From Candidatus Magasanikbacteria bacterium RIFCSPHIGHO2_02_FULL_48_18 (lineage in GTDB: Bacteria; Patescibacteriota; Patescibacteriia; Magasanikbacterales; UBA922): 64,000 nt of DNA. A model generated the notes under the pieces. It saw only the letters and a program-made list of their open reading frames with translations. It had not been told where the DNA came from and did not search any database. The stretch spans positions 29,780 to 93,779 of the forward strand of contig MFQC01000001.1 of assembly GCA_001784285.1 (NCBI GenBank), in the 5' to 3' direction. This document shows, piece by piece, positions 1,202 through 50,400 of this stretch. Position 1 is the stretch's first letter; each line of letters starts with the position of its first letter. Position numbers and translations under genes: made by a program.

Positions 1202-2617
1202 CTATGCGCCGGCTCTTGTATATTGACGAATCAGTGCCGTCAATTCTCGAGTTTTTTCCTCCAAAAGAGATTGGGATGACGCTTCTACGGTAAGCCGGAC
1301 GACCGGGTCATTGGCAGAAGGACGGACATTAAAATGCCACTCCGGATATTCCATGCTAACCCCATCTAATGTGAGGATTTTTCCTCCCTTGCCAGCGTAC
1401 GCTTCGCGTATCGCCGCAATGACGAGCGACGCATCGGTCACGTCAAAATTAATTTCTCCAGAAATATAATATGGGCCCAAATCTTGGACCATTTCCGACA
1501 GTGTTTTTCCTTTTTTGGAAAGCGCGGCCAGCAGAAGAAGCACAGGCGCAAATCCGTTTTCCATATACCGATTTTTGGCAAAATAATAATGACCGCTCAC
1601 TTCTCCGCCAAAAATTGACTGGGTTTCATTCATCTGGTGTTTGATATAGGTATGCCCCACCCGCCCCATGTGGGCCTTGCCGCCAGCCTTGGCGACCCAA
1701 TCGTTCAGCGCTCGGCTAAATCGAAGATCATACACAATGCCGCCTCCCGGGTGTTTTTCAAGCATTTCCAAAGCAAGGAGCGTTGCAACAAAATCTCCAT
1801 GAACATACGCCCCTGTTTCATCAATAAAATAGACGCGATCACAATCGGCATCCCATGCGATGCCCAAGTCAGCGCGCTCTTCTACCACGCGTCGCATAAT
1901 ATCGCGGCGATTTTCTTCTTCAATGGGGTTGGCTGGGTGATTGGGAAAAGTTCCGTCTGGCTCAAAATAAAGCGGAATAATCTCAACGGGCAAGCCCGCG
2001 AAAATCTTGCGCGCCACGACACCGCCCATCCCGTTCCCCGCGTCCATGACAATGCGGAACGGCTTGAGTCGGCCAACATCAATAAAACTTCTGGTAAAAT
2101 GCACAAAATCATCCCATATATCCTTTTTTGCGGTTGTCCCCGGCACAGATTTTTTTTCAACAATCGCATCCGAGAGGGCAAGACGCTCCAAATCTTCCAT
2201 GCCCAAACCCCTGCCAATGGGGGACAAGACCCCTCGTTCATCCAGCCGTAAAAATTTGAGACCATTGAATTGTTTGGGCATGTGCGACGCCGTAACCATG
2301 ACGCCTCCGTCATACCCATAAAACCACGCGGCAAAATACATGGCATCGGTTGAGACCATGCCAATATCAATAATCGAGATGCCACGCTCCAAAAGACCGC
2401 GGACGAGCGCATCCGTTAACGATGGAGACGACACGCGTGCGTCGTAGCCAACCACCACGCTTTGCGGATGGGCATACGCGGCATACGCGTGCGCCACGCG
2501 GTAGACAATGTCTTCGGTGAGATTGTGTCCGTATACGCCGCGAATATCATAATTTCGAAAAATGGTTTCTTGTGACATAGATCGTTTTTGTTGTATTTGC
2601 GTGCTCACGCCGGGCAT
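1202..2617 (-). CDS. alpha-D-phosphohexomutase family protein (phosphoglucomutase / phosphomannomutase / phosphoglucosamine mutase)
   Basis: N-terminal IFRNYDIRGVYG and the active-site Ser loop TASHMPKQFNGLKF (TASHNP-type motif). Four-domain length of 471 aa. An alternative start is MSQETIF at 2578. Confidence 0.8.
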   Translation of the reverse strand: MPGVSTQIQQKRSMSQETIFRNYDIRGVYGHNLTEDIVYRVAHAYAAYAHPQSVVVGYDARVSSPSLTDALVRGLLERGISIIDIGMVSTDAMYFAAWFYGYDGGVMVTASHMPKQFNGLKFLRLDERGVLSPIGRGLGMEDLERLALSDAIVEKKSVPGTTAKKDIWDDFVHFTRSFIDVGRLKPFRIVMDAGNGMGGVVARKIFAGLPVEIIPLYFEPDGTFPNHPANPIEEENRRDIMRRVVEERADLGIAWDADCDRVYFIDETGAYVHGDFVATLLALEMLEKHPGGGIVYDLRFSRALNDWVAKAGGKAHMGRVGHTYIKHQMNETQSIFGGEVSGHYYFAKNRYMENGFAPVLLLLAALSKKGKTLSEMVQDLGPYYISGEINFDVTDASLVIAAIREAYAGKGGKILTLDGVSMEYPEWHFNVRPSANDPVVRLTVEASSQSLLEEKTRELTALIRQYTRAGA

Positions 2618-2619
2618 CC

Positions 2620-2648
2620 TTGAAAATAGTCGAGAATACCTCTATACT
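2620..2648 (+). promoter_or_regulatory. sigma-70-type promoter for the ClpC-like gene (TTGAAA -17- TATACT)
   Basis: TTGAAA at 2620-2625, a 17-nt spacer, TATACT at 2643-2648. An AAAGGA Shine-Dalgarno sits just upstream of the ATG at 2667. Confidence 0.45.
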
Positions 2649-2666
2649 ACCTGCACAGAAAGGACA

Positions 2667-5273
2667 ATGCAACTCTCTATGAATTCTGACGACATTCTCA
2701 ACAAACTCTCGACCCACCTCAAAAACACCATCGCGAAAGCCATTTCATTTGCCGCGCATCTTGGCGATGAAGAAGTGTCGCCGCTCCATATTCTTTTTGC
2801 GCTTGCGGAAGAGGAAGGATCTATCGGCCGTGAAATACTCCAAAAAGCGGGGTTGACTTCAGAACATATCTTCCACTGGCTCAAAGGAAAAAAATCATAC
2901 CCCAAAAAATCAGAAACCCCAGGGAAAGCAAACACCAAAATGCTCGAACTCCCCGAACTCGATCCGACGTCAAAAAAAATCCTTGAAAAAGCAATGTATA
3001 TTTCATATGAGCATCGCCACTCCTACGTGGGGACCGAACATTTGCTTGCGGCATTGATTGAAAGCGACATACACGCGTTGAAACTGTTTTTTACGTCGCA
3101 AAAAATCAACCATGAGGCATTGGAAGACCACCTGGCAACCATTCTTGACAATACGTCCAATTTCCCCCATGTGGATGATGTCGTCGAAAGCATTACCCAT
3201 ATGCAACACACGCTTGATCAGGACGTTCATGATGACCACCCATTGCCCCAAGAGCCGCCGCAACAATCATCCGACGCGCCGCTCCACATTGGACGAAAAA
3301 AAATGAACAAAAAAGCATCCCGGCGGTCGCCCACCGCTCTTGATGTGTTTACGGTTGATCTCACGCAAAAGAAAAATCAAACGCTGATTGACACCGTCGT
3401 CGGCCGAGAAGAAGAAATAGACCGGCTTATTCATATTTTGTGCCGCCGAAAAAAAAATAATCCGGTGCTCGTGGGAGAGCCGGGCGTGGGAAAAACCGCA
3501 ATTGTGGAAGGCCTGGCAAAACGCATCTCCGAGGGCGACGTGCCCGACATTTTGAAACGAAAAAAAATCCTTTCTCTTGATCTCACCCTCCTTATTGCCG
3601 GAACCGTCTATCGAGGAGAATTTGAAGGGCGAATCAAACAACTCATTGATGAATTGGCGGAGCGGCCGGACTCTATCCTCTTTATTGACGAAATCCACAA
3701 CATTATCGGGGCAGGATCAAACCAAGGCACGATGGATGCGGCAAATATTCTGAAACCCGCTCTGGCGCGAGGACAACTGCGATGCATTGGAGCGACGACG
3801 ATTGACGAATATAAAAAATACATCAGTTCCGACCCCGCGCTTGAACGACGGCTTCAGCCAATTGATATTGACGAACCGACCGCCGAACAAACGATACAGA
3901 TGCTCGATGGGATAAAAGCATCATACGAGGCCTACCACGGCGTTTCCATACCTCGCGAAGCCATTGAAACAGCGGTTCGCTTGAGCGACAAAATGATCCA
4001 CGACAATTTTTTTCCGGACAAAGCTATAGACATCATTGACGAGGCGGCGGCGGCGGTCAGGACGAAAAAACGCGCCAATAAACAAGAACAGCACATCCGC
4101 AATCTGGAACGCATGGTCGAACAATGGGAGGACCAAAAAGAAGAGGCTATTCAAAAAGAAGAATTTGACGCCGCAATTCAGCTCAAGGAAACCATTGCCG
4201 AGACACGAAAAGAAATAGCCTCGCTCATAAAAAAACAAGCAAAACAAAAACAACGAAAACTCCCTGTTGGCAAAGAAGATGTTGCCGAGGTCGTGGCAAA
4301 ACGATTCCATGTGGACGCGGCAATGCTCTTGTCTGAAGAGAGAGAGCATCTGGAACGAACCAAAAAAAATCTCCGCGAGCATATTGTGGGACAGGACGCC
4401 GCGATTGACCAAATTATCCAAACGCTCCAAAAAACATATCTCAAACTCCCTGCTTCCAAACGGCCGGCCGCGTCGCTGTTTTTTGTCGGTCCAAGCGGGG
4501 TGGGAAAAACCGAGCTGGCAAAACGTCTTGCCAAAGAATTGACCTTTGACGACCGGGCGCTCATTCGTCTCGATATGAGCGAATTTTCCGAAGGGCATGG
4601 AACATCAAAGTTGCTCGGGTCGCCGGCAGGATATGTCGGCTATAAAGAAAGAAATTTGTTTTTGGAACAGCTCAAAAAACGCCCGCACTCCGTGGTCTTG
4701 TTTGATGAAATAGACAAAGCCCACAGGGACGTGCGCAAACTGCTTCTTCAAATTTTGGATGAAGGAGAATTGACCGATAGCAATGGAAAAAAAACATCCT
4801 TCCGGCATGCGATTGTTATTTTGACGAGCAACATCGGCGCGGAACTCTATGCCTCCCCCGGCATCGGATTTGGAGCCAAAGACAGCCCGGCCGTGAATGG
4901 CATCCCGGACGACCGAAAGAAGGCTCTGCTTCAAAAACTGACAGAAGAATTCGGCGCCGAATGGATAGGGCGCATTGACAACGTCTGCCTGTTTTCGCCT
5001 CTCCAAAATGAGCACCTGACGCGTATTATTGAAAAACAAATTCAAAAAATAAGCGGCCACCTGACCGAAACAAAGCAAATTGCCGTGACGATTGATGAAT
5101 CGGCGATTGCGGCCATTGTCCGCCAAGGGCATACCACAGAAGTCGGAGCCCGGCATATTGGACAAGCGGTGGAACAAGCGATTCATGAGGCCGCATGGTC
5201 GCTTTTTCAAAAACAAAAAAGGAAGCAACACTACACGCTCAAATACGCGGAAGGCCTGTATCATTTGAAATAA
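2667..5273 (+). CDS. clpC: ClpB/ClpC-family AAA+ chaperone ATPase (Clp N-domain, two AAA modules, middle coiled coil) carrying an unusual His/Gln/Pro-rich insertion after the N-domain
   Basis: Clp_N repeats ([23 protein letters not shown]). First Walker [16 protein letters not shown], Walker B ILFIDEIH. Second Walker [18 protein letters not shown], Walker [12 protein letters not shown]. The start was placed at the ATG at 2667 (MQLSMNS), which has an upstream promoter and SD; the ORF-track start at 2562 would overlap the divergent mutase gene. Confidence 0.85.
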
Positions 5274-5280
5274 ACATTGT

Positions 5281-5790
5281 GTGTCCCTCTTTGGGCATCT
5301 CTTTACTTTCGTCTTTTGTATGGCACGGCGACCCCCAAAAAGAAACAACCAACAGTCGGCGATCTACGGCCGACCTAGCGCATGGGAGGAAAACGCGCCG
5401 TCGGGAATGGCCGATGCCAATCTAGAAAATGAAGCGCTTGAAAGAGACACTCAAGAAAAAAACTGGGCCAACCAATTACGGCGCTCCCAACAGCAGGAAC
5501 AAAACGACCAATCCCAAAACCAGGCCGAACCCCAACAGCCGTCCCCCGCGCCACAGTCTGGATCGAAAAAAACTAGCGGAAAAAAACCACAACCGACAAC
5601 AAAAAAAATGGATGCGCTGATGAAAAAAATACAAATAGCCCTTTTTGCGCTTTTTCTTATCTGTCTTGCGACGATTTTACCGATGTTTACACCGCTTCCG
5701 TTTATGCTTCTTGCCGCGATTGGCGCGATTTTTGGCTATAGAAAAATAGTAAAAGGAGCAGAAATCGTCCAAAGCGGTGGTAAAAAATAA
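5281..5790 (+). CDS. hypothetical protein with a Gln/Glu-rich low-complexity N-terminal region and two C-terminal transmembrane helices
   Basis: Translation QQQEQNDQSQNQAEPQQPSPAPQ followed by hydrophobic IALFALFLICLATILPMF and LPFMLLAAIGAIFGY. No recognisable domain. The start is uncertain. Confidence 0.35.
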   Translation: MSLFGHLFTFVFCMARRPPKRNNQQSAIYGRPSAWEENAPSGMADANLENEALERDTQEKNWANQLRRSQQQEQNDQSQNQAEPQQPSPAPQSGSKKTSGKKPQPTTKKMDALMKKIQIALFALFLICLATILPMFTPLPFMLLAAIGAIFGYRKIVKGAEIVQSGGKK

Positions 5791-5815
5791 CGGAAAAAAC
5801 ATTTAATAACATCCT

Positions 5816-7042
5816 ATGGATAAAAAACGAATTATCTTTGCCATTCTTTTTATCATCGTCACGATCCTCCTCGGCTACCTCATGTATCGTGTTTTTTTTG
5901 CAAAAAAAACGCCAAAACCTCCGACACCGCAAACGCAAGAACAACTCCCGGGCGGCCAATTTCCCATAATTGGAGAAGGGGGCCAGCCCGGACAAATTGT
6001 AACCGGCACAATCCAGTTGCCAACCGCAGGATTTGTTCCTCCTCAAACCCCCGCGTTGCCTCCGCCTCCCGCGCAAACACCCCTTGTCCAAAAGCTGGCC
6101 AACGACATCGTGGTTTCTCCCGCGGCAGACTCGTTTGGCGGCGCAAAATTTTACAATGCGCAAGACGGAAAATTTTACCGCCTCCTTCCAGACGGCACAT
6201 TGGCGCTTTTGAGCGATGATGTTTTTTTTGGGGTAGAAAATGTCTCTTGGTCGCCAAAAACAGAAGAAGCCATCATTGAATATCCTGACGGAGCAAACAT
6301 TTATTTTGATTTTGAAACCAAAAAACAAGTGACACTTCCCAAACATTGGGAGAACTTTTCATTTTCTCCGACAGCGACAAAAATTGCGGCAAAGAGCATT
6401 GGCCTCTCTCCGGAAACTCGATGGCTTATCACCGCAGACCCGCAGGGAAATAACATCACCCTTGTGGAACCCATGGGGCAAAACGCAGACAAGGTTGATG
6501 TCAATTGGTCTCCCAACCAACAAATCGTGGCGACCTCCCTCACCGGCAAACCCATGGGGGGCAACCGCGAACAAGTTCTTATGATCGGCCTTCACGGAGA
6601 AGTGTTCAAAGCCATTATTGCAGAAGGCCAATTTTTGGATAGCGCATGGTCGAAAACCGGAGAAAAACTCCTTTTTAGTTCGTACAGCACGGCAAGCGAT
6701 TATAAACCGGAGCTGTGGATAAGCAACGCCGCAGGAGATCTTATCGGCACCGGCAGAAAACCTCTCGGACTCAACACCTGGGCGGAAAAATGTACCTTTG
6801 CTGATGACCGTTTTGTGTATTGCGCCGTTCCAAAAACCCTTCCTACCGGATCCGGCTTTGAACAAAGCCTTGCGGACGCCATTGAAGATGACCTCTATAA
6901 GATAGACACTCAAACGGGCATAAAATCAAAATTACTGCTCGAAGAAGGGCACGTCATTGACACGATTCTCGTGAATGGCGACACCGACGCGCTGTACTTT
7001 ACGGACAAAAATCAAAAAGGCATCTTTACGATTGCTCTATGA
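5816..7042 (+). CDS. membrane-anchored PD40/TolB-like beta-propeller protein (N-terminal TM helix, Pro-rich linker, WSP-type blades)
   Basis: N-terminal TM IIFAILFIIVTILLGYLMY, then a PPxP-rich linker. Repeated W/FSP blades: VSWSPKTEEAII, FSFSPTATKIAAKS, VNWSPNQQIVATS. Confidence 0.5.
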   Translation: MDKKRIIFAILFIIVTILLGYLMYRVFFAKKTPKPPTPQTQEQLPGGQFPIIGEGGQPGQIVTGTIQLPTAGFVPPQTPALPPPPAQTPLVQKLANDIVVSPAADSFGGAKFYNAQDGKFYRLLPDGTLALLSDDVFFGVENVSWSPKTEEAIIEYPDGANIYFDFETKKQVTLPKHWENFSFSPTATKIAAKSIGLSPETRWLITADPQGNNITLVEPMGQNADKVDVNWSPNQQIVATSLTGKPMGGNREQVLMIGLHGEVFKAIIAEGQFLDSAWSKTGEKLLFSSYSTASDYKPELWISNAAGDLIGTGRKPLGLNTWAEKCTFADDRFVYCAVPKTLPTGSGFEQSLADAIEDDLYKIDTQTGIKSKLLLEEGHVIDTILVNGDTDALYFTDKNQKGIFTIAL

Positions 7043-7689
7043 TACGCACAAGACAATTGCTTTTTCTTTTTGTCCCGGCCATTGTATTTGCGGGCTTTGC
7101 CGTATTTATTCGGTACGTCGAATATCACAACGCCGCAACGCCGAGCGCTCCCGCGCCGTCGTCCGAACCGCTCGCGCTGGTGCCCATATATCCTGAGGAT
7201 CCGATTATCGGAGAAAAAAAAGCGCCCCTCACCGTTATCGGATTTGAAGACTTTGGGTGCAAAGGATGCCAAATCCAAATGGCAATGCTCGACGAACTGC
7301 AACAGTCTTTTCCCGAAAAAATAAAAATTATTTGGAAAGGCCTTCCGGTCATGAAGTTTCCATACGACAGCCACCTCGCGCACGAATACGCGTTTTGCAT
7401 GAATCAAGAAGGACGATTTGACGCGTTTAAAAACTTTGCGTTTGCAAATGGAGACAATCTTTCTCTTGCGGTATTGGGCCAAAGCATTGCCGCGGCGGGA
7501 GCGGAACAAACCGTCTTCGAGGCCTGCATAAATTCGCCGGAGCCAAAACAATACATTGAAACCATCGAACTCATGGCCCAGTCGCTCAATATCCAATCCG
7601 TCCCGACTTTTTTTATTGATAACAAACAAATTGAAACGCCGCAAACCAAAGAAGCGTGGGCGGCGCTCTTGGGATTGTCCTCGCTATAA
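7039..7689 (+). CDS. DsbA-family thiol:disulfide oxidoreductase, membrane-anchored
   Basis: N-terminal TM LLFLFVPAIVFAGFAVFI. CxxC active site in FGCKGCQ. Thioredoxin-fold length. The start overlaps the upstream gene by 4 nt (ATGA). Confidence 0.6.
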   Translation: MIRTRQLLFLFVPAIVFAGFAVFIRYVEYHNAATPSAPAPSSEPLALVPIYPEDPIIGEKKAPLTVIGFEDFGCKGCQIQMAMLDELQQSFPEKIKIIWKGLPVMKFPYDSHLAHEYAFCMNQEGRFDAFKNFAFANGDNLSLAVLGQSIAAAGAEQTVFEACINSPEPKQYIETIELMAQSLNIQSVPTFFIDNKQIETPQTKEAWAALLGLSSL

Positions 7690-7695
7690 CAACGT

Positions 7696-8850
7696 ATGCT
7701 ATCAAAATTTTATTTTTTTCTTTTTCTCGTTTTGAGCGTTTTTACCGTGAACGCATTTGCTATTCCCGCTGTGGTGATGGCGGAGAATGACACACAGAAT
7801 GAATTGGAGGACCTGCTCAAAAAACCGGATCTCAAAATCCATATTCCGGGACTCGACTTTACCGATCCGGACGATTTGTCAACCGTACAGGACGAACGAG
7901 GCAATCAATATATTCTTATTCCATACCTTGGCGAATATCTCGCGGCGGTCTATCGCTATGCGGTCGTGGCCGTTTCCGTCCTCTCCGTCGTCATTCTCAT
8001 TTTTGCCGGCATTCAATGGATGATCCCTGCAGGAGAAGGAGGATCAAAAGACAGCGCGAAAAAACGGATTGCCGGAGCAATGACCGGATTGGTAATTACC
8101 ATAGGGTCATATACACTGCTTTATACCATCAACCCAAATTTGGTGGAATTTAAAAATTTGAAAGTGTTATATGTAAATAGAAAAGATCTCGATGAATTTG
8201 AAAGCGTGTCATTTGAATTTGAAAATTATGCGCTCTCTGCTCATGGAAAAATTATAGAACAGCTCATTGGGCCAAACACGCTTCCTCCCTGCTCAAAAGA
8301 AGCGGCACAAGCCGCGGCCACCGCCCTCCATAATAAACAAATTTGCGTCGGCCCATGTCATTGTGCCTATTCCGCATCGAATTTTTTGAACTACATCGGC
8401 TGTACCGATGTCTATAGCGGTCTCGCCAATAAACTACCGGAAAAATTAAAAGAAAAAGGATGGGTGGAAACACCGATTGATCCCAGCAACCTTGGCAATC
8501 TTCCCGTGGGGTTGTTATGGAAAGATGGACATGTGGGCGTATCCATTGGCAATGGTATGGACTTTGAATCTGGAAGCGGGACACGAGACTTCGACCGGCT
8601 GAACAAAGAAACAAAAAATAATTGCCCTTCTTCCTTTGTGGAGGCAATGAAAGACCCCCAAGCCTGCGCGTTTTGTTCCAAAATTCCAGAAGAGTCCCCG
8701 GCGTCAGGGCATTTTGGCGCGCCAGCGCTTGGAGGTACCGGAGGCGGCGGCTCTTGTAAAAGTAATCAAGGATGGTCAAAGGGAAAAATGTCTGACCGAA
8801 AAGGAAAATCAAGCTGGGTAAACGTTGTTCACCCGCCCATCAGTCAATAA
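7696..8850 (+). CDS. signal peptide, two-helix pilin-like membrane module, and a Cys-rich NlpC/P60 (CHAP-like) cell-wall hydrolase domain
   Basis: Signal peptide MLSKFYFFLFLVLSVFTVNAFA. Helix pair AAVYRYAVVAVSVLSVVILIFAGIQWM and RIAGAMTGLVITIGSYTLLYTI with a GGSKDSAKK loop between them. C-terminal GLLWKDGHVGVSIGNG is a typical NlpC/P60 His motif. Many Cys residues (CVGPCHC, CPSS, CAFC). Confidence 0.45.
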   Translation: MLSKFYFFLFLVLSVFTVNAFAIPAVVMAENDTQNELEDLLKKPDLKIHIPGLDFTDPDDLSTVQDERGNQYILIPYLGEYLAAVYRYAVVAVSVLSVVILIFAGIQWMIPAGEGGSKDSAKKRIAGAMTGLVITIGSYTLLYTINPNLVEFKNLKVLYVNRKDLDEFESVSFEFENYALSAHGKIIEQLIGPNTLPPCSKEAAQAAATALHNKQICVGPCHCAYSASNFLNYIGCTDVYSGLANKLPEKLKEKGWVETPIDPSNLGNLPVGLLWKDGHVGVSIGNGMDFESGSGTRDFDRLNKETKNNCPSSFVEAMKDPQACAFCSKIPEESPASGHFGAPALGGTGGGGSCKSNQGWSKGKMSDRKGKSSWVNVVHPPISQ

Positions 8851-8874
8851 TAACCAATTGGCAATACCCCCCTA

Positions 8875-9966
8875 ATGAACACACTCCGTATTAAAAAAAA
8901 AATTTTCTTCCTTTTTGGTTCAATTCTTCTTTTGAGTTTTTTTTTAATTGGATTCGCGCTTTGGTCCAAAAATCGAGAAATCCTTGTCAGCCAGCCGGAA
9001 AAAATATCCCTGCCGCAAGGACTCTTTTTTTCGTTCACGAAACAACAGCATCTTCTTTTTTGGAACAATGAAAAATACCTGCTTTCTTTTTTGGATATAT
9101 CAAACAATATCCTGCCTAAACAGATGCTCTTTACAGAAAAAATAGTTGGCATTACCAATATTGTTTGGTCGCCGACAGAAAACGGCGCCTCCATTGAAAC
9201 AACGAATGGAAAATTTGTTCTTTTATTTGATGATGAAAAAACAATACCACTCCCAAAAGGCGCCATAGGCGTCACCTGGTCGCCGGATGGGCAATTCCTC
9301 GCGTATCAAACATTCTCATCGGAGAGCCAATATACAAGCGTTATTTCCATTCTTGACATTGCAGACCAAAACGTCCTTTCTGAATATATGATTGATATGT
9401 CTGATCATCCAGAAACAACCGGGCAAGTATTGTTATACTGGATTGAAAAAGACAGACTCTGGTATGCTCCGGAAGTGACTGATGGCGGGGTGCCATTTTG
9501 GTATCCCATTGAAAAAAATACCATTGAAAAAAGAAAAAATTTTGACCGAAAAAATATTGGCATTGTTGACGTATCCCCAGATGGGAGTTATCTTTTATAT
9601 ACCAAACCAACGGAAGATATTGATCGCTCGGACTTTATCTATGGAATTTTGAACCGGGAAACCGAAGCCGAAATAAATATGGACCTTACAGCGACCAATA
9701 CCACCTGTGCATGGCAGACGAATTCAGCGCTCCTCTGCCTGAAAAAAGAAAACCAATATTTTATCTTTGGGACTGTTGATTTTAAGAAAGAAGAATATGT
9801 ACTTCAAAATATTTTTCCCGAATCAGAAAGCACCGTGTCCATCACCTCCTTTCTTTTTAATGAAAAAACAAATACAATTTATTTTCTGAATATAAGGGAT
9901 GAACTATACGCCGCCAACACACTCAAAACAAAACCTATCTTTCAACTATCTGAAACAAACGACTGA
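8875..9966 (+). CDS. membrane-anchored PD40/TolB-like beta-propeller protein (paralog of 5816-7042)
   Basis: N-terminal TM IFFLFGSILLLSFFLIGFALW. Blades IVWSPTENGASIE, GVTWSPDGQFLAYQ, VDVSPDGSYLLYTKP. Confidence 0.5.
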   Translation: MNTLRIKKKIFFLFGSILLLSFFLIGFALWSKNREILVSQPEKISLPQGLFFSFTKQQHLLFWNNEKYLLSFLDISNNILPKQMLFTEKIVGITNIVWSPTENGASIETTNGKFVLLFDDEKTIPLPKGAIGVTWSPDGQFLAYQTFSSESQYTSVISILDIADQNVLSEYMIDMSDHPETTGQVLLYWIEKDRLWYAPEVTDGGVPFWYPIEKNTIEKRKNFDRKNIGIVDVSPDGSYLLYTKPTEDIDRSDFIYGILNRETEAEINMDLTATNTTCAWQTNSALLCLKKENQYFIFGTVDFKKEEYVLQNIFPESESTVSITSFLFNEKTNTIYFLNIRDELYAANTLKTKPIFQLSETND

Positions 9967-11290
9967 ACAACTTTTTCTCTGTACCAACTGCGACGCCCAA
10001 TACACCAAATGGGCGGGCAGGTGTTTGGAATGCGGAAAATGGGGAACAATTGAAAATTTTCAAGCTCCAATGTCCAAAAGACAAGATAAAACATCCGAAT
10101 ACCCACCCACAAAAACACAAACGCTCAAAGATATTGCGTCACAACATACGGTAAGGAAAAAAACCGGCATACATGAACTCGACACCGTGCTTGGCGGCGG
10201 CATTGTGCCGGGAAGCCTTCTGTTAATGGGAGGTGAGCCGGGCATTGGAAAATCAACGCTCGCTCTCCAATTGGCCGCCCTTGTCTCGCCCGCACTCTAT
10301 ATTTCGGGCGAAGAGTCACTGGGCCAGATAAAAATGCGGGCTGACCGGCTCAATATTCACGCGCAAGGTCTTTCGCTTGCCAATGAAACCAATGTGGAGC
10401 GTATTGCCGCGACCATTCGGGAACAAAAACCCGCCATAGCGATTATTGATTCCATCCAAACCATTTTTTCTGATGAGGTAAGCGGCGAAATTGGGGGTGT
10501 AAACCAAGTACGCGTCTGCGCCACAAAACTCCTTGACGTTGCAAAATCATCAGGGGTCGCAGTCATTATTATTGGACATGTCACCAAAGACGGTTCGGTC
10601 GCCGGACCAAAAACCTTGGAACATTTGGTTGATACGGTCCTCTCGTTTGAAGGAGAAAAAGACCAGCAATACCGCATTCTCCGAGCAACCAAGAACAGAT
10701 TCGGGCCGACCGATGAAGTGGGTATTTTTGAAATGATCGAAACCGGCCTTGCGGAAGTGAAAAACGCGTCCGCGTGTTTTTTGAAAGATCGCGGCGACGA
10801 TGTGCCGGGCAACATTGTGACCTGCCTTATGGAAGGCAAACGGCCGCTCCTCGTTGAAATCCAAGCGTTGGTCAACAAAACCGCGTTTGGCTACCCGGTC
10901 CGCAAAGCCAGTGGTTTTGATCTCAACCGGCTCCATGTATTGGTTGCTGTTCTTCAAAAGCGCGCCAACATCAATTTGGCCCAATATGATATTCATATCA
11001 ACGTCGTTGGCGGCATCAAAGCCGAAGAACCGGCGTCCGACCTCGCGGTCTGTTTGGCGATTGTGAGCAGTTACAAAGACAAACCGCTTGGCAAAGACGT
11101 GGTGGTGTTTGGGGAGGTTGGTTTGGGTGGTGAAGTGCGAGCCGTGTCACATCGAGACAAACGCATCAAAGAATGTGAGGCGCTACAGATGAAGAAAATT
11201 ATTACCGCGCAAGCCAAAAAGAAAACCGCTGAACACACGATTACCATTATAGGAGTAAAAAATATCCAAGAACTTATAACCCAGACCTAA
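9899..11290 (+). CDS. radA: DNA repair protein RadA/Sms
   Basis: Zinc finger CTNCDAQYTKWAGRCLECGKWG. Walker A GGEPGIGKSTL. KNRFG motif (ATKNRFGPTDEVGIFEM). Lon-protease-like C-terminus. The only ATG start gives a 68-nt overlap with the upstream gene. Confidence 0.85.
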   Translation: MNYTPPTHSKQNLSFNYLKQTTEQLFLCTNCDAQYTKWAGRCLECGKWGTIENFQAPMSKRQDKTSEYPPTKTQTLKDIASQHTVRKKTGIHELDTVLGGGIVPGSLLLMGGEPGIGKSTLALQLAALVSPALYISGEESLGQIKMRADRLNIHAQGLSLANETNVERIAATIREQKPAIAIIDSIQTIFSDEVSGEIGGVNQVRVCATKLLDVAKSSGVAVIIIGHVTKDGSVAGPKTLEHLVDTVLSFEGEKDQQYRILRATKNRFGPTDEVGIFEMIETGLAEVKNASACFLKDRGDDVPGNIVTCLMEGKRPLLVEIQALVNKTAFGYPVRKASGFDLNRLHVLVAVLQKRANINLAQYDIHINVVGGIKAEEPASDLAVCLAIVSSYKDKPLGKDVVVFGEVGLGGEVRAVSHRDKRIKECEALQMKKIITAQAKKKTAEHTITIIGVKNIQELITQT

Positions 11291-11300
11291 AAAATAGGAA

Positions 11301-13472
11301 TTATTCTAAATGTACTTTTTCTTCCCATTCTTTTACTCTTTCTTTTAATTGTGGGAATTGCGCAAAATCAATGTCTCTCGCGAGCTTTCGCGCGAGCTGA
11401 ATAATGGACCCATCTTTCATGGTTGCCAGACGAAACTGCATCATGCCGCTTTGCGCCGTGCCATACACGTCTCCGGGACCGCGCGTTTGCAAATCATATT
11501 CGGCAAGTAAAAACCCATCCGTTGTTTTTTCAAAAAAAGCAAGCCGCTCCCGAACGGTTTCCGTATCGTTATCCGTAAACAAAAAACAATAGGATTGGTG
11601 GTTACTCCTGCCCACGCGGCCACGAAATTGATGCAGTTGTGCCAAGCCAAAACGCTCTGCCCCTTCAATCATCATGACTGATGCGTTGGGAATATCCACG
11701 CCGACTTCGACGACTGATGTTGACACAAGAACATTAGTCTCCCCTTTTTGAAATAACGCCATAACGTCATCTTTTTCTTTGGTCTTCATTTTGCCGTGAA
11801 GATACGCGACCTTGAGATCTGGAAAAATAGTTTCTGATAATTTTTTGTATTCCGATAAAACAGATTTTTTTTCTAACTGATAGTTTATATCTTGTGTCTT
11901 AGAATGTGATTCTTTTTCTTCTATCAACGGACAAATAACAAACACCTGTCTCCCATTCTTCACCTGTTCTCGAATAAACGCGTACGCCTTACCCCGATTG
12001 TGAGGATCAACCAGTCTGGTTTTGATCGGTTTTCTTCCCGCGGGCATTTCGTTGATAATGGATAGGTCCAGATCGCCATAGAGCGTCAATGCGAAGGTCC
12101 GCGGAATTGGCGTTGCCGTCATACTCAAAAAATGCGGCGTTGTTGTGGTATGTCCGGATTTATCCCGAATTATTTTTCGCTGTTCCACGCCAAAACGATG
12201 CTGTTCGTCGATAATAACAAGACCGAGATTTTTGAATTGGACATCCCCGTTCAGCAATGCATGCGTCCCAACAATAATATGAGCACCGCCAGAACGAATA
12301 TGCTCAATGACATTTCTTTTTCGCGATGCCAATGATGTAGGCTGTTTTTTTGTTTTTAAACTTTCATCTTGACCGCTGATAATATGTTGGCTTTGACCTT
12401 CTTTTTCTTCAACACTGCCCCCTGTCAACAGCCCCAGAGAAATATCAAGAGCACAAAACAGCCCACGCAACGATTCAAAATGTTGTTTTGCCAATATCTC
12501 GGTCGGCGCCATAAGTATGGCCTGTTGGCCATTCAGTATCGTGTTGTACAAGGACAGCGCGGCAACAATCGTTTTTCCCGAACCCACATCCCCCTCAAGA
12601 AGACGATTCATGGGTGTTGTTTTTTCCACATCTTGAAGTATTTCCCATGCCGCAATTTTTTGCGCTTTGGTAAGCTGAAATGGCAGTCCATCCACAAAAT
12701 TTTTTATTTCTTTTTGGTGAAAAATCAAAGATGGCGCAACCTCGCGCTTGATGGTCTGGCGTATCATCTCCGCTCGAAGTTGCAGGACAAAAATTTCATC
12801 AAACTTCAGTCGTTTTTCCGCATGAAGCAAATCCGTGCTGTCTTCTGGAAAATGAATGGCGCGTATGGCGTTTTGAATGGGGACAAGGTCGGCCTCTTCC
12901 ACAATGGTTTCCGGAAGCCATTCCGGAATGTTTTCCGAAAGAGCGATCACCTGGCTCACGAGAAAACGGAGCTGTTTTTGCGTCATCCCCGCGGTCAAAG
13001 AATACATAGGCACAATGCGCGCCGTGTGCGTCGTGTCTGTGCGGTCAGTCGGCGTTGACTGGTGTACTTTTTCGTACGCCGGACTTTTCATAACCATACC
13101 AATCATGTCGCTCCCCACTTTGCCCGAAAAATAAACCGAATTACCCGCACGAAGACTTTGTGTTAAAAACGGCTGGCCAAACCACACCACGCGAAGTTGA
13201 CCCGAGTCATCCGATACCAACGCTTCGGTAATAATGGTTCGTTTCCTCGGGCTCCGTTTGTTGGCAATTAATTCTATTTTTCCACGTACGGTTACCAGCT
13301 CACCCTCCTTCTGCGAGAGCTCACGGATAGCAACCGTTTGACTAAAATCTTCATAGCGAAACGGAAAATACCACAACAAATCCCGGACCGTGCGAATACC
13401 AAGATGACTTAGTTTTTTCCCTAAGGTTTTTCCAACACGATTGAGAGCGGCAACCGAAGTGTCAAGATGCAT
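11301..13472 (-). CDS. recG: ATP-dependent DNA helicase RecG
   Basis: N-terminal wedge/OB region. Walker A DVGSGKT, DEQHRFGV (DEQH box), and C-terminal helicase motifs HGKMKTKEKDDVM and QLHQFRGRVGR. Confidence 0.85.
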   Translation of the reverse strand: MHLDTSVAALNRVGKTLGKKLSHLGIRTVRDLLWYFPFRYEDFSQTVAIRELSQKEGELVTVRGKIELIANKRSPRKRTIITEALVSDDSGQLRVVWFGQPFLTQSLRAGNSVYFSGKVGSDMIGMVMKSPAYEKVHQSTPTDRTDTTHTARIVPMYSLTAGMTQKQLRFLVSQVIALSENIPEWLPETIVEEADLVPIQNAIRAIHFPEDSTDLLHAEKRLKFDEIFVLQLRAEMIRQTIKREVAPSLIFHQKEIKNFVDGLPFQLTKAQKIAAWEILQDVEKTTPMNRLLEGDVGSGKTIVAALSLYNTILNGQQAILMAPTEILAKQHFESLRGLFCALDISLGLLTGGSVEEKEGQSQHIISGQDESLKTKKQPTSLASRKRNVIEHIRSGGAHIIVGTHALLNGDVQFKNLGLVIIDEQHRFGVEQRKIIRDKSGHTTTTPHFLSMTATPIPRTFALTLYGDLDLSIINEMPAGRKPIKTRLVDPHNRGKAYAFIREQVKNGRQVFVICPLIEEKESHSKTQDINYQLEKKSVLSEYKKLSETIFPDLKVAYLHGKMKTKEKDDVMALFQKGETNVLVSTSVVEVGVDIPNASVMMIEGAERFGLAQLHQFRGRVGRSNHQSYCFLFTDNDTETVRERLAFFEKTTDGFLLAEYDLQTRGPGDVYGTAQSGMMQFRLATMKDGSIIQLARKLARDIDFAQFPQLKERVKEWEEKVHLE

Positions 13473-46627: not shown

Positions 46628-47440
46628 CTATGATGACGTTGCAGGAGTGCCAACGTCAAAAATTCTTCCAGGGCCGGCCGGATTATACCCTGCTTTTACT
46701 TCTTGACCGTCGAGATACCCATCCCCATCAGTATCTGGATTCAGCGGATCAGTTTTCCATGCCAACACCTCGTCTCCGTCACTCAGCCCATCGCTATCCG
46801 AATCCCAATGGAGCGGATCGGTCCCCACATCTTTTTCATCCCCGTCACTGATGCCGTCACTGTCACTATCAATAGGTTCGCCAAATAATATTTGTTCATC
46901 AACTGAAAATTGCGGAGCCGGCGGTTGGGTGTTTTGTTCTCCGGACGGTACCGGCTGGCCGCTGGTTTCTCCGGTTTGCTCCGCTGTCTGGGTCGGCTGA
47001 ATATCGACCTCGTTTGTGTCTTGAATAAACACACGGTAGACGTACCATCCGGCAAAACCAAGAAATAATACCCCAACTCCGGCAATCAGCCCGATCGCCA
47101 GACCCCGGCTCAACAATGGCTCCTTCATTGGGTAGTCCATTTGTTCTTCCGGTGGTGTGATAATTTTGGGCGGGACATCCGGAGGCTGCGACGGCACCAT
47201 ATCTAATGATTCGGGAGACGATTTCGGTTTTAAAATTCCTGCTTGTATTGCTGTTTTTGGCGTGGAAAATTCCGGCGCGACACCGAACGAATCCGGATTT
47301 TTTTCTAACGGATTGGGCTCGCTTATCGGAACGGTTTCATCCGCAGATACATCGGTTTGACCAAAAATATCTTCCGGCTCTGCCGTGGGAAGATTGGGCG
47401 GGACAGAACCTTTTGGTTGGAGTGCTGAATCATCAAACAT
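46628..47440 (-). CDS. membrane-anchored protein with thrombospondin-type-3-like calcium-binding repeats (paralog of 45483-46598)
   Basis: Pro-rich N-terminus, a single TM (LAIGLIAGVGVLFLGFAGWYVY), and a C-terminal DSDSDGISDGDEKDVGTDPLHWDSDSDGLSDGDE...DTDGDGYLDGQEVKAGYNPAGPG. Confidence 0.45.
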   Translation of the reverse strand: MFDDSALQPKGSVPPNLPTAEPEDIFGQTDVSADETVPISEPNPLEKNPDSFGVAPEFSTPKTAIQAGILKPKSSPESLDMVPSQPPDVPPKIITPPEEQMDYPMKEPLLSRGLAIGLIAGVGVLFLGFAGWYVYRVFIQDTNEVDIQPTQTAEQTGETSGQPVPSGEQNTQPPAPQFSVDEQILFGEPIDSDSDGISDGDEKDVGTDPLHWDSDSDGLSDGDEVLAWKTDPLNPDTDGDGYLDGQEVKAGYNPAGPGRIFDVGTPATSS

Positions 47441-47482: not shown

Positions 47483-50400
47483 TTATTGGAGCCCGCCGCT
47501 ATTGGGGCATTGATCCGTACCCGTAAGCGCACAAGAACCCGGATTCACCGCGTTTTGTACATCGCAAAAACAGGTCCGAATCTTTTGCTGGCTTTCTATT
47601 TTTATATCACCATTTCCATCTTTCACCAAATTAAACACATGCCAATACTCCGCGTTTTTGTTGGTGCTCGTTCCTTTTGCTTCGGTAATGGGAAATACTT
47701 GATCCGGAAGATACATCGCTGACAGTGGGTCGTCGGCGTTGGTAAAGGATTTTGGTTTGTATAATTCTACAATAAATGACGTATTGTTTTGATCTTCAAA
47801 AATTGAATGGGTAATATTCTTTACAAAAAACCCAAGCTTGTCCCCATTGTTGAGCGGATTGGTGTTGATGGTGAAGGATTGCGCGTTGATTTGACCAATC
47901 TGTCCATAGGGATGAACAAAAATACTTCCGCCATACCCGGAACATCCGTCCGGATACCAATATTTTATAGCGTTACTCGTTGTTTGTTTTATGGTATCAC
48001 AAAAATTTTGGCTGGCGGCAAGTGGATTTACGGTCGGGTAGGACCCAGATTTTATTTGGGGGCCGGTGGCGGGATCGTGATACACGTGTGGAAGAATATC
48101 ATTTTTCCCAAAACTGTTCCCCCACCGTACTACCACGCGATACGTATTTGGTGGCGTTGCCGGAGAAAGCAGGAATTCGTTCTTGATATCCGCGCCGGAG
48201 ACATTGAGTGGGTATGGAAAATAACTGCTGTTTGCCACGGAAGAAAAAGTAGTTTTGTACGCGGCGGAACAAAGCGCGCTCCCTTCAATAAGAGGACTCC
48301 CGCTAAAGGTATTATAATCCATAAATGCAGCGGGCATATCTTTCTCTGAACCAATTTTCTTTTTGTTCGCCCCGTCCGGTCCTACTTTGTACAACGACAA
48401 TTTCATTTTTTTTCTCCACTCGTCACCCATCTGAACGCTGTTACCGAGCATAACATTCATAACTGACCACTGTGCTTTCTTTCCTGTAGTGGCTTCTCCG
48501 CACAGCACGCAGCCACTCACTAAATTGAGGCATTGATTTTCGCAAGCAAAACTCCCGTAGCCATACTTCGGGTCTGTAGTTGCATCGCCATCATCGGTAT
48601 AAAGGCTCTCACACGTAATTGGACTCGCAAGATTGCCCACCTTCTTTTGAACCACCTGGCCGGTTGCGGCAACCATGTCACACTGTTCACTGCTGCCAGT
48701 ATTCACTTTTGCGTCACCACAATATCCGGTTGCCGGCTTGGTTATTTCGGTACATTCTTTGGTACAATAGGTACATTCAAGATTATACCCCGGCGTGCAT
48801 TCTTTCCCGTTGGCACTTCCGAGGTCGCACTGTTCGCCCTCGTCAAGCGTTCCATTGCCGCATCCGGTTTCCGACTGCGTTCCCTGAGCCGCTCCCGCGT
48901 ATATGCCATCGCAAATCAGGGCGACACTTTTCAGTGATTGGTCCTGAGCCGCCGTCTTATCTGTTAAATTTTGTGGACAATATTGCGGCCCTTCGGGCGG
49001 GTCGACTCCAACCACAAAGCCAAGACATCCCAATCCATACGCGCGACAAATATCAGTACCTGTTGTTTCGGAAACACACGCAGAAATGGGCGTTCCCTGA
49101 AAAGAAGTTGGCGCGTCATAATCGCCTTTGCCAAGATAGATCCATGTGGTATTGGCCGCGGCATTCTTCACTTCCTTGAGATACGGATTTTGCGCTTTAC
49201 ACGCCACATTTTCTTTTTGGCATGCGGGCGTACAGCCATCAAGCGCGGTATCGTTGCCGTCATCACACGCTTCATATTGCGCATTGACCTTTCCGTCACC
49301 GCAATATCCGCCATAACTGGTGCAATCCCAAGAACATGAAAGCTCTTTAATAGTGTGATAGGTCGGGCCTGAAGAAACGTTCTTGACACAACTGCCTTTA
49401 TCTTCCACAGTGGGAGTAAACAAAGAATCAATATATGTTTGTTCATTAAACGACTGATTATTCGCGGCTTTTGTCAAATTTTCTATGGAGAGCAGTTTGG
49501 TTGCCACAGGGACATTTTCACAATCGATGGATTTGTCGCAGAGAATGCCGGGATCTTTAAAACAACGGCCCGTAAATTTAGTGCACTCCTCAGGGTAAAT
49601 GGAAAAACCAAAGTCATTATCATCCCCGAACGAGCCCAACAATCCATCGAAGAGAGCGCTAAATACTTTTGCGATGCTATAATTGTTAAACGCGAACGAC
49701 TTTGTATTGAGATAGGTAAACGCGTTTTGGCAATCTACTTTTGAATTCAATCCGGTGAAGCATTGGAGAAGCCATTGTTCAAAATTTGCATCGCATTGCA
49801 TGCGCGTGTAGGTGTTATTATTGGCAGGAAGAACAAACGCCGGCGCCGCGGAAAGTTTTTCACATAATAAGCCCACATTGTTAAAGTATTTGCCGTCGCC
49901 GCATTTGGACTGTTCAAACTGGCATATCGCACTGCATCCGTCTAAGGAAGCGGTGTTTCCATCGTCGCATCCTTCTCCAAGCTCCACTTTACTGTTACCG
50001 CATTCTGCGATTGGTTTGCATGACGGCGATTCTGCCCAGGCGCAATCCGCGCCGCACAAACCAATATAGGCCTCGCTAAACGCACAATTGCCACCTGCCA
50101 CATACACCGTGCTATTTGGCGATTCGCATTCTTCTCCTTGATTGAGATTTCCATCACCACATACGCCGGCAAATGGACTCATAAACGTCCCCGGCTGACA
50201 CGCCTGCGCCGTGGTATAGAAACTCGTCATGTAGGCCTGGCCTTCGCAGTTATCATGGAACCCATTATTATTACTGTCTTGTGCTGGATTGTTTGGAATA
50301 AGACTCAACCCTAAAAATGATACGTCTGATACATTTATTATGCCATCGCAGTTAAGGTCTGCCTCTTCAACCGATACAGAAAGACAGTCTTTCGTCCCAT

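Follow-up and report, generated by a model that had tools for sequence, protein, structure and literature searches.

Results

A conserved four-gene cell-envelope cluster

We analysed a stretch of 64,000 nucleotides from Candidatus Magasanikbacteria bacterium RIFCSPHIGHO2_02_FULL_48_18 (contig MFQC01000001.1, positions 29,780 to 93,779 of the forward strand; here called the window) with a focus on four consecutive plus-strand genes. In order, these encode P1, a membrane-anchored and probably propeller-like protein of 408 amino acids (aa); a membrane-anchored DsbA-like thiol:disulfide oxidoreductase of 216 aa; a 384-aa protein in which a pilin-type hairpin, the carrier module, precedes a new C-terminal domain that is likely a divergent papain-like hydrolase; and P2, a second membrane-anchored protein of 363 aa that shares features with P1. 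All four open reading frames (ORFs) were confirmed (Table 1), as were the tight junctions reported in a preliminary description made from the sequence alone: P1 and DsbA overlap by four nucleotides (ATGA), and gaps of 6 and 24 nucleotides precede the genes of the 384-aa protein and of P2, respectively. Homologues of all four ORFs occur at syntenic positions in other genomes, so these are true genes rather than chance ORFs, and together they constitute a real and conserved cell-envelope unit.

Gene order, which the preliminary description had proposed as a check, proved to be conserved in nine other distinct genomes, all of Patescibacteria (L001, L002, L003, L006, L007, L009, L010, L011 and L012; L008 is the same contig as L002, and L004 and L005 were grouped with L003). 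The shared order is clpC, a small transmembrane protein, P1, DsbA, one or more pilin-anchored enzymes and radA. Upstream, the slot is bordered by a ClpC-type AAA+ chaperone with an orthologue in place in eight of the nine genomes (L001-L003, L006, L007, L010-L012); the L009 locus begins after the clpC position. Downstream, it is bordered by RadA/Sms, whose orthologues are present in all nine loci at 46-67% identity. P1 is a constant member of the cassette (nine of nine, 37-54% identity), and DsbA lies directly upstream of a pilin-anchored enzyme in eight of the nine. P2 was found in L006 and L007, two of the nine; it is an accessory, and of the two proteins P1 alone is constant in the cluster.

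Exchange of catalytic domains at the slot

What the slot holds between DsbA and radA differs from genome to genome. In L002 the order is clpC, a 153-aa protein, P1, DsbA, a carrier with the new domain and radA, and L003 (Magasanikbacteria CG1_02_32_51) has the same order plus an added GDSL domain. L006 and L007 have P1, DsbA, a carrier with the new domain, P2 and then a second carrier protein before radA, the latter being glucosaminidase-like in L006 and VanY in L007. Two tandem carriers with the new domain occupy the slot of L009. In L001, DsbA is replaced by a 1028-aa carrier protein (4798-7896 of that locus) that bears Peptidase_C39_2 and a divergent copy of the new domain (E = 8e-14) lacking an equivalent of C221, one of the cysteines described below. 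In the remaining three genomes the P1-DsbA pair is followed by SLT plus GDSL and then M23 plus SLT (L010, 8203-11986), by Amidase_2 (L011, 10001-11338), or by SLT and then Metallophos plus VanY (L012, 10001-14109).

Judged by housekeeping genes, these last three genomes are the closest relatives of the window, with housekeeping flanks that are 50-67% identical. Their RadA is 61-67% identical to that of the window, versus 46-60% in L001, L002 and L006; the corresponding values are 53-54% versus 37-39% for P1 and 52-58% versus 30-35% for the carrier module. The new C-terminal domain is absent from L010-L012 and present at 42-50% identity in L001, L002 and L006. Because distant genomes share the new domain and the closest ones do not, the carrier and the catalytic domain have separate histories. 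Taken together, these comparisons indicate that the slot is constant and that its predicted catalytic content is exchanged between close relatives at a fixed locus.

The carrier module is homologous to VirB2/TrbC-type pilins

The 384-aa protein begins with a predicted Sec signal peptide, behind which lies the carrier module. This opens with a lead-in motif (KPxxxIxIPGxxF...IPYLGEY), continues with two helices (aa 77-109 and 115-145 in the full-length model) joined by a Lys/Arg-rich loop (SKDSAKKR), and leads into an exit motif, INPxLVxF (aa 146-150, 8131-8145 in the window), that is nearly invariant over carriers with unrelated passengers. The exit motif marks the boundary between the constant and the variable part of these proteins, and recombination or processing could take place there.

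The module is conserved in 80 proteins (E = 1e-13 to 1e-45). Against the T4SS_pilin model the 384-aa protein itself scores 16.4 bits, below the Pfam cut-off of 26.6, and sister proteins with the same module score above it, at 34.5, 39.4 and 39.6 bits. A search with the module profile brought up 107 short proteins of 94-238 aa (E = 1e-43 to 1e-5), nearly all annotated PF18895 and many also PF04956 (TrbC/VirB2); the stand-alone pilins retrieved in this way include proteins of Saccharibacteria. From these profile comparisons, homology of the carrier hairpin to stand-alone VirB2/TrbC-type pilins (PF18895/PF04956) is clear, and what had been described on first inspection as a pilin-like two-helix module is thus borne out by homology. 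In a Foldseek search, the full-length model was dominated by the hairpin and gave a weak match to the conjugative pilus 8dfu (TMt 0.63, E = 4.5). A match of the carrier profile to MscL in the PDB was rejected as a short-motif or transmembrane artefact.

Among the 46 first-round homologues of the 384-aa protein, the carrier is fused to Amidase_2, SLT, M23, VanY, Peptidase_M15_4, NLPC_P60, C39-like and GDSL domains, and fusions to known peptidoglycan hydrolases occur in at least 30 relatives. Within the window, two more proteins possess the module: a 756-aa protein with an Ig-like domain, and a giant protein of 4157 aa that, by its domain composition, looks like a hairpin-anchored adhesin. Three window proteins thus use the module, which makes the hairpin a general carrier, or anchor, of this lineage's surface proteins. 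In some carrier homologues another enzyme-like domain precedes the hairpin, namely Exo_endo_phos (L007, 6288-8729), an alpha/beta-hydrolase-like domain (L009, 2906-5065) or GDSL (P0009), so the hairpin can bear passengers at both ends. Other carrier homologues bear Cys-rich knot-like repeats.

A rare, disulfide-rich C-terminal domain

The C-terminal domain (203 aa) is unclassified: neither it nor 35 members of its family matched any Pfam, NCBIfam or PHROGs model at E ≤ 1. An exhaustive search of 1.84 billion representative proteins revealed 52 family representatives. In 45 of the 53 matches analysed the carrier module stands in front of the domain, the rest being short fragments or one false positive, and a scan of one genome per species revealed four loci with the domain. 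On these counts the domain is rare and, so far, exists only on the carrier. The false positive is P0086, which owes its match to a repeated KDGNVGIG motif and is not recognised by the family profile.

All cysteines of the protein reside in this domain, and there are nine of them, not the approximately 15 first reported. C221 and C354 are replaced jointly in all seven sequences that lack either one, and C310 and C324 in both sequences that lack either one; since the members of each pair are lost together, C221-C354 and C310-C324 behave as disulfides. The other five cysteines (199, 217, 223, 236 and 327) are invariant, and this odd number implies one unpaired Cys.

An AlphaFold2 model of the domain, built with a 35-sequence alignment, has high confidence (predicted local distance difference test, pLDDT, 94.1; predicted template modelling score, pTM, 0.91). 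In it the candidate nucleophile C223, which is invariant in 35 of 35 sequences and is the Cys left over when the covarying pairs are set aside, is the first residue of a helix (domain positions 42-52). H279 is the His of the motif GLLWKDGHVGVSIGNG, is likewise invariant in all 35 family members, and lies at the start of a strand (domain positions 98-104). On the strand that follows is the candidate third polar residue, position 291, which is E, D or Q in 12, 12 and 11 sequences, respectively; the adjacent S292 is invariant (35 of 35). In NlpC/P60 and CHAP enzymes the triad is laid out with its Cys at the N-terminus of a helix, its His where a strand begins and its polar residue on the following strand, and the alignment and the model together place the conserved Cys/His/polar set of the new domain at the secondary-structure positions of that layout. 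The candidate Cys, His, Glu and Ser are also retained in the divergent domain copy from L001.

In four independent searches the informative matches were all CHAP, NlpC/P60 or papain-fold proteins, each of them non-significant. First, the family profile had only four matches among all PDB sequences (hmmsearch), all NlpC/P60 (Spr/MepS, 7cfl; E = 0.7-1.4); the alignment of HvgVslGngkqFeS with HVGIYIGNNQFVHA places residue 291 on the third catalytic residue of Spr (a His). Second, the Foldseek matches in the PDB with non-trivial probability were all of the papain fold: PlyPy (a CHAP lysin; E = 0.12, template modelling (TM) score 0.38), Lys2972 and MepS, and further an NlpC/P60 domain (8er5, TMt 0.47) and arylamine N-acyltransferase. 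Third, the Foldseek matches among viral models (best E = 0.03) were to Lysin A, a streptococcal lysin, and NlpC/P60 and LRAT-like proteins; no match in either Foldseek search reached the significance mark of E ≤ 1e-3. Fourth, carrier-fused proteins with a true PF00877 domain share with the new domain the motif GHVIMY[IV]GNG...ES, or H-x(5)-G-N-G-x(3)-E-S; H279 falls on the catalytic-His motif in these pilin-fused NLPC_P60 proteins as well as in MepS/Spr. A profile-profile comparison (hhalign) with three pilin-fused PF00877 domains gave P = 7.6e-4 and a probability of 10%, with a reference of just those three sequences (a search seeded with the PF00877 domain of P0027 returned one protein).

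The preliminary description had assigned the domain to the NlpC/P60 or CHAP-type peptidases. The motif, the invariant His and the Cys/His/acidic set at the expected positions agree with that assignment, but no family model matches. Of the Pfam families it had named for checking, Thioredoxin_4 and DSBA score above their cut-offs on the DsbA-like protein, NLPC_P60 and CHAP give no match, and PD40 falls just short on P2 (see below). We regard the domain as likely to be a divergent papain-like hydrolase of the NlpC/P60-CHAP type, an identification that alignment and model suggest and do not prove.

DsbA belongs to the slot and P1 is its constant partner

The DsbA-like protein matches Thioredoxin_4 at 74.1 bits (cut-off 23.2, E = 1.9e-20) and DSBA at 34.7 bits (cut-off 25.6, E = 2e-8), and its active-site motif, C74-K-G-C77, can be read in the sequence. 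With its N-terminal transmembrane segment it is, as first described, a membrane DsbA with a CKGC motif. The accompanying proposal of a dedicated folding or secretion unit, with DsbA devoted to the Cys-rich hydrolase, did not hold up: the same P1-DsbA pair precedes pilin-anchored Amidase_2, SLT, M23 and VanY in the closest relatives (L010-L012), and on these grounds we reject dedication to the new domain and conclude that DsbA serves the slot. It is tied to P1 and to whichever exported, usually Cys-containing enzyme sits on the carrier. P1 and P2 are also plausible DsbA substrates because each keeps an invariant Cys pair. Among the large window ORFs scanned no DsbB or VKOR partner turned up, in scans that were not aimed at one.

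P1 and P2 each have one N-terminal transmembrane segment, and the evidence for propellers is weak. P1 has no Pfam match; its orthologue in L001 shows faint PD40/Tricorn matches, and the P1 family profile matches TolB at E = 0.33. P2 scores 20.3 bits against PD40, below the cut-off of 20.9. P1 is probably a propeller of the PD40/TolB type, a plausible but weak assignment from sequence profiles. The two proteins match each other with BLASTP at E = 0.021 and with hhalign at a probability of 94.9%, with residues 232-404 of P1 falling on residues 86-239 of P2. Because this match is out of register, their likeness reflects shared blade repeats, and the idea that they are colinear paralogues was rejected. 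Matches of the P1 profile to designed beta-trefoils (Symfoil) in the PDB were set aside as a short-motif or transmembrane artefact. P2 was seen only after the new domain, in three of seven domain-bearing genomes (the window, L006 and L007) and in none of the three genomes with other domains, numbers that are too small to interpret.

Neighbouring genes and slot borders

The closest relatives of the window genes are found in Candidatus Magasanikbacteria and further Patescibacteria. Beyond the cluster and the carrier proteins described above, the window holds housekeeping genes: LCP, EngA, DprA, a Mur ligase, TopA, RelA/SpoT, ParB, a D-Ala-D-Ala carboxypeptidase, tRNA synthetases, pyruvate kinase, HtrA, FtsZ and FtsA. 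No type IV secretion system (T4SS) genes were found in the 64-kb window, and no T4SS families in the 20-kb loci of relatives that we examined (L010-L012 included). A longer synteny block, at 1202-13472 and also present in L003 and L010-L012, runs from a GlmM-like phosphoglucosamine mutase (minus strand) through clpC, the cassette, radA, recG, LCP and engA to dprA. In Firmicutes operons clpC and radA are neighbours, and the cassette therefore looks like an insertion into an old clpC-radA unit.

The gene between clpC and P1 varies in relatives (117-771 aa), and the small protein that it encodes in the window has no family match in Pfam and the other family-model scans. As listed, the ClpC ORF begins about 35 codons before the conserved N-terminus (2562-2670), and this N-terminal extension contains the region's best promoter-like site, TTGAAA-17-TATACT (2620-2648). 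Because of that site the listed start is probably too far upstream, and the real one probably lies near 2667. At the other border, RadA as listed shares its first 68 nucleotides (9899-9966) with the end of P2, and the RadA proteins of relatives are 10-20 aa shorter; for both reasons the true RadA start is uncertain and probably lies downstream at a non-ATG codon. A scan for promoters and terminators gave counts near the shuffled expectation and no intergenic plus-strand terminator, and neither shows nor excludes co-transcription.

Table 1. Features of the cluster and related genes, in window coordinates
Feature	Position	Strand	Remarks
ClpC-type AAA+ chaperone	2562-5273	+	Upstream slot border
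Small low-complexity protein	5281-5790	+	C-terminal hydrophobic hairpin (segment aa 110-154)
P1, probably PD40/TolB-like beta-propeller	5816-7042	+	Transmembrane segment aa 1-31; invariant C326, C336
DsbA-like oxidoreductase	7039-7689	+	Transmembrane segment aa 4-29; CKGC at aa 74-77
Putative pilin-anchored hydrolase, whole gene	7696-8850	+	46 homologues; full-length model pLDDT 77.6
Predicted Sec signal peptide	7696-7761	+	aa 1-22; hydrophobic N-terminus; ends ...VNAFA before IP (putative cleavage site)
Carrier module	7816-8190	+	aa 41-165; lead-in, two hydrophobic helices, exit motif
C-terminal domain, disulfide-rich	8239-8847	+	aa 182-384
C223 codon	8362-8364	+	Candidate catalytic nucleophile
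H279 codon	8530-8532	+	Candidate catalytic His
E291 and S292 codons	8566-8571	+	E291, candidate third polar residue
P2, PD40-like protein	8875-9966	+	Transmembrane segment aa 6-33; invariant C278, C288
RadA/Sms	9899-11290	+	Downstream slot border
RecG	11301-13472	-	Downstream of RadA
Protein with bacterial TSP3 repeats	46628-47440	-	Flanks the giant gene on the side opposite the 756-aa protein
Giant carrier protein (4157 aa)	47483-59956	-	T4SS_pilin 39.6 bits (aa 63-127), then TIG, Big_5 and BNR/Sortilin/PSII_BNR propeller repeats
Carrier protein of 756 aa	59965-62235	-	T4SS_pilin 34.5 bits and Big_5 Ig-like domain; directly upstream of the giant gene

Discussion

A pilin hairpin that probably bears a wall hydrolase

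On balance, and with moderate confidence, we favour a reading in which the cluster is an envelope cassette between clpC and radA whose papain-like Cys hydrolase, borne on a pilin hairpin and oxidised by DsbA, would cut peptidoglycan at the producer's own surface. In Magasanikbacteria-like Patescibacteria the cassette would provide three proteins facing the outside of the membrane: P1, DsbA and the carrier-borne exo-enzyme. Hydrophobicity, the model and the topology of VirB2 suggest that, after cleavage of the signal peptide, the two helices insert as a hairpin with the KKR loop in the cytoplasm and both flanks outside the membrane. The C-terminal domain would be held by four disulfides, C221-C354 and C310-C324 as judged by covariation and two others presumed, all of which DsbA may form. 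C223, H279 and E291 would then act as a catalytic triad that cuts a peptide or amide bond of peptidoglycan. The site of action is most likely the producer's own surface, where the enzyme would remodel its own wall or act on the wall of a cell in direct contact; we favour this site because the tether is short (aa 146-181, about 35 residues), the neighbourhood is one of housekeeping genes, and the loci examined hold no T4SS genes and no consistently adjacent immunity gene. Relatives keep P1, DsbA and the hairpin and have the catalytic domain swapped for Amidase_2, SLT, M23, VanY, glucosaminidase or a C39-like domain.

Several observations weigh against this reading. No match of the domain to an NlpC/P60 or CHAP model or structure is significant (Foldseek E = 0.03-0.12 with TM scores of 0.3-0.47, hmmsearch E = 0.7), and in the best hhalign alignment C223 and the reference's catalytic Cys lie one helical turn apart. 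The cluster C217-x3-C221-H222-C223 could bind a metal instead. Peptidoglycan as the substrate is suggested solely by analogy with the other passengers of the carrier. Finally, L001 carries the new domain and has no DsbA in its slot, and the P1-DsbA pair accompanies other catalytic domains as well, which makes its tie to the new domain non-specific.

Alternative readings

A second reading, which we treat as possible but rather unlikely, casts the hydrolase as a weapon that is displayed on a pilus or released: a VirB2-type pilin would be polymerised by a T4SS, or the enzyme would be cleaved off, and would open the wall of a host in episymbiosis. The swapped domains might then reflect an arms race with hosts, and P2 might restrain or guide the enzyme. 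Both termini of the pilin lie on the outer surface of solved conjugative pili, so a fusion could be displayed, but a bulky domain on each subunit would clash in a filament, and the fusion could therefore be a minor subunit only. The homology of the module to stand-alone VirB2-like pilins fits this reading, as do the fusions of Exo_endo_phos, GDSL and alpha/beta-hydrolase-like domains to the other side of the hairpin, and the adhesin-like 4157-aa protein on the same carrier. The presence of other catalytic domains in the slot of the closest relatives by housekeeping genes, with the new domain shared by distant genomes, fits as well, although modular shuffling is normal for ordinary autolysins too. 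Many Patescibacteria possess VirB2-like pilins and a T4SS, which one studied species cannot do without when growing as an epibiont (PMC12102498, PMC12857230). Against a weapon stand the lack of T4SS genes in the window and in every 20-kb locus examined, the lack of an immunity-like gene that is consistently adjacent, and the embedding of the slot in housekeeping genes. For the same reasons, the absence of T4SS genes from the window and the clpC-radA housekeeping setting, the likeness to VirB1/CHAP hydrolases and the breaching of a host wall that the preliminary description had put forward find no local support.

A broader version, which we consider unlikely, holds that the carriers are modular VirB2-type pilins. 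Their hairpin would present giant adhesins and exchangeable enzymes from eight or more catalytic families, among them the unclassified Cys-rich papain-like one, on T4SS-dependent filaments or at their tips. In that case the clpC-radA slot, with its fixed propeller-DsbA pair, would be a polymorphic effector locus that serves to open the host's wall in episymbiosis, and P2 could be a cognate regulator or inhibitor. Domain exchange between close relatives, the extra nuclease- and esterase-like domains, the epibiotic habit of all cultivated members of the phylum and the essential T4SS pilins keep a host-directed filament role open.

It is improbable, in our estimate, that the domain is a papain-like enzyme with a substrate other than peptidoglycan, such as a C39-like protease of surface proteins, a cross-linking transglutaminase, or an LRAT-type acyltransferase or phospholipase. 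The papain-like superfamily does include such enzymes, the Foldseek lists hold arylamine N-acyltransferase and an LRAT-like protein, and the carrier bears Peptidase_C39-like domains in P0022, P0023 and L001. However, classic peptidoglycan enzymes make up most of the carrier's passengers, lysins and MepS are the best neighbours of the domain in structure and sequence, and its His motif resembles that of NLPC_P60 members. Least probable of all is a non-catalytic, disulfide- or metal-stabilised binding module whose Cys and His residues are structural or metal ligands: the clustered C-x3-C-H-C motif resembles a metal site and no enzyme family gives a significant match, but C223, H279 and E291 fall on a helix, a strand and the next strand as in a catalytic layout, the number of invariant Cys is odd, S292 and the G-H-V-G motif are kept as in active NlpC/P60 enzymes, and the domain sits where relatives have true hydrolases.

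Relation to known systems

The closest counterparts of the new domain are NlpC/P60 enzymes (E. coli MepS/Spr, PDB 2k1g and 8xud; PF00877) and CHAP lysins (PlyPy, 5udm). They share with it the placing of a Cys at the N-terminus of a helix, of a His where a strand begins and of a polar third residue on the strand that follows, as well as the motif H-V-G-[IV]-x-x-G-N-G and an exported, cell-wall context, and they were the top matches in every search. Unlike them, the new domain comes without a significant sequence or fold score, spans about 200 aa with two extra N-terminal helices, a Cys-rich helical insert and four probable disulfides, and occurs solely behind a pilin hairpin; its nucleophile motif is P-C-H-C-A-[YW]-T where theirs is D-C-S-G or Q-C-T-W.

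The carrier resembles the VirB2/TrbC-type pilins of Patescibacteria (PF18895, PF04956; Quinonero-Coronel et al. 2025, PMC12102498) in its signal peptide, two-helix hydrophobic hairpin and direct profile homology. Those pilins are 90-130 aa long, stand alone and are often arrayed beside virB4, whereas the hairpin here has a conserved lead-in, the INPxLVxF exit and large enzyme or adhesin domains, and has no T4SS neighbours. A small pilin module that carries grafted functional modules, in a wide range of architectures, is also found in modular type IV pilins (PilB of Streptococcus sanguinis; Raynaud et al. 2021, PMC8179133). Those have a class III signal peptide, whereas the carrier here is a VirB2-type hairpin and does not match any N-methylation or type IV pilin model (IPR012902).

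Like the VirB1-type hydrolases of monoderms (TraG of pIP501 and PrgK of pCF10, with SLT plus CHAP), the 384-aa protein would be a membrane-associated peptidoglycan hydrolase that may open the wall locally, a parallel in which the link to a T4SS is conceptual. VirB1-type proteins lie inside T4SS operons and are anchored by a plain transmembrane helix, whereas this protein lies in a clpC-radA slot amid housekeeping genes (clpC, radA, recG, LCP, engA and dprA), is anchored by a pilin hairpin and matches neither an SLT nor a CHAP model. A swappable amidase, endopeptidase or glycosidase on a constant targeting module, in a housekeeping role of wall remodelling, recalls the modular autolysins and phage lysins of Gram-positive bacteria (with LysM, SH3b or cell-wall-binding, CWB, carriers) and the FtsEX-controlled CwlO and PcsB. 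Here, unlike in those proteins, the constant module is a membrane hairpin and not a wall-binding repeat or coiled coil, and it comes with a constant propeller and DsbA partner.

Significance

Nothing that we found in the literature searched describes hydrolases fused to a VirB2 hairpin, the new domain or the clpC-radA slot. The enzyme itself probably belongs to a known class; what is new is the unclassified, divergent domain, the unusual carrier and the modular, conserved locus. The ultrasmall Patescibacteria form a very large group whose cultivated members have so far all been epibionts. VirB2-like pilins abound in them, are essential in the one species tested and have no assigned function (PMC12102498, PMC12857230).

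The locus defines a previously unclassified, disulfide-rich and putatively catalytic domain that is found solely on a pilin-hairpin carrier, and a fixed chromosomal slot of propeller, DsbA and carrier in which the predicted catalytic domain is exchanged among close relatives. The pilin hairpin appears to serve also as a carrier for enzymes and giant surface proteins. These findings bear on how Patescibacteria may remodel their own wall or breach that of a host and, if display on filaments were true, would give the T4SS pilus of Patescibacteria a concrete function.

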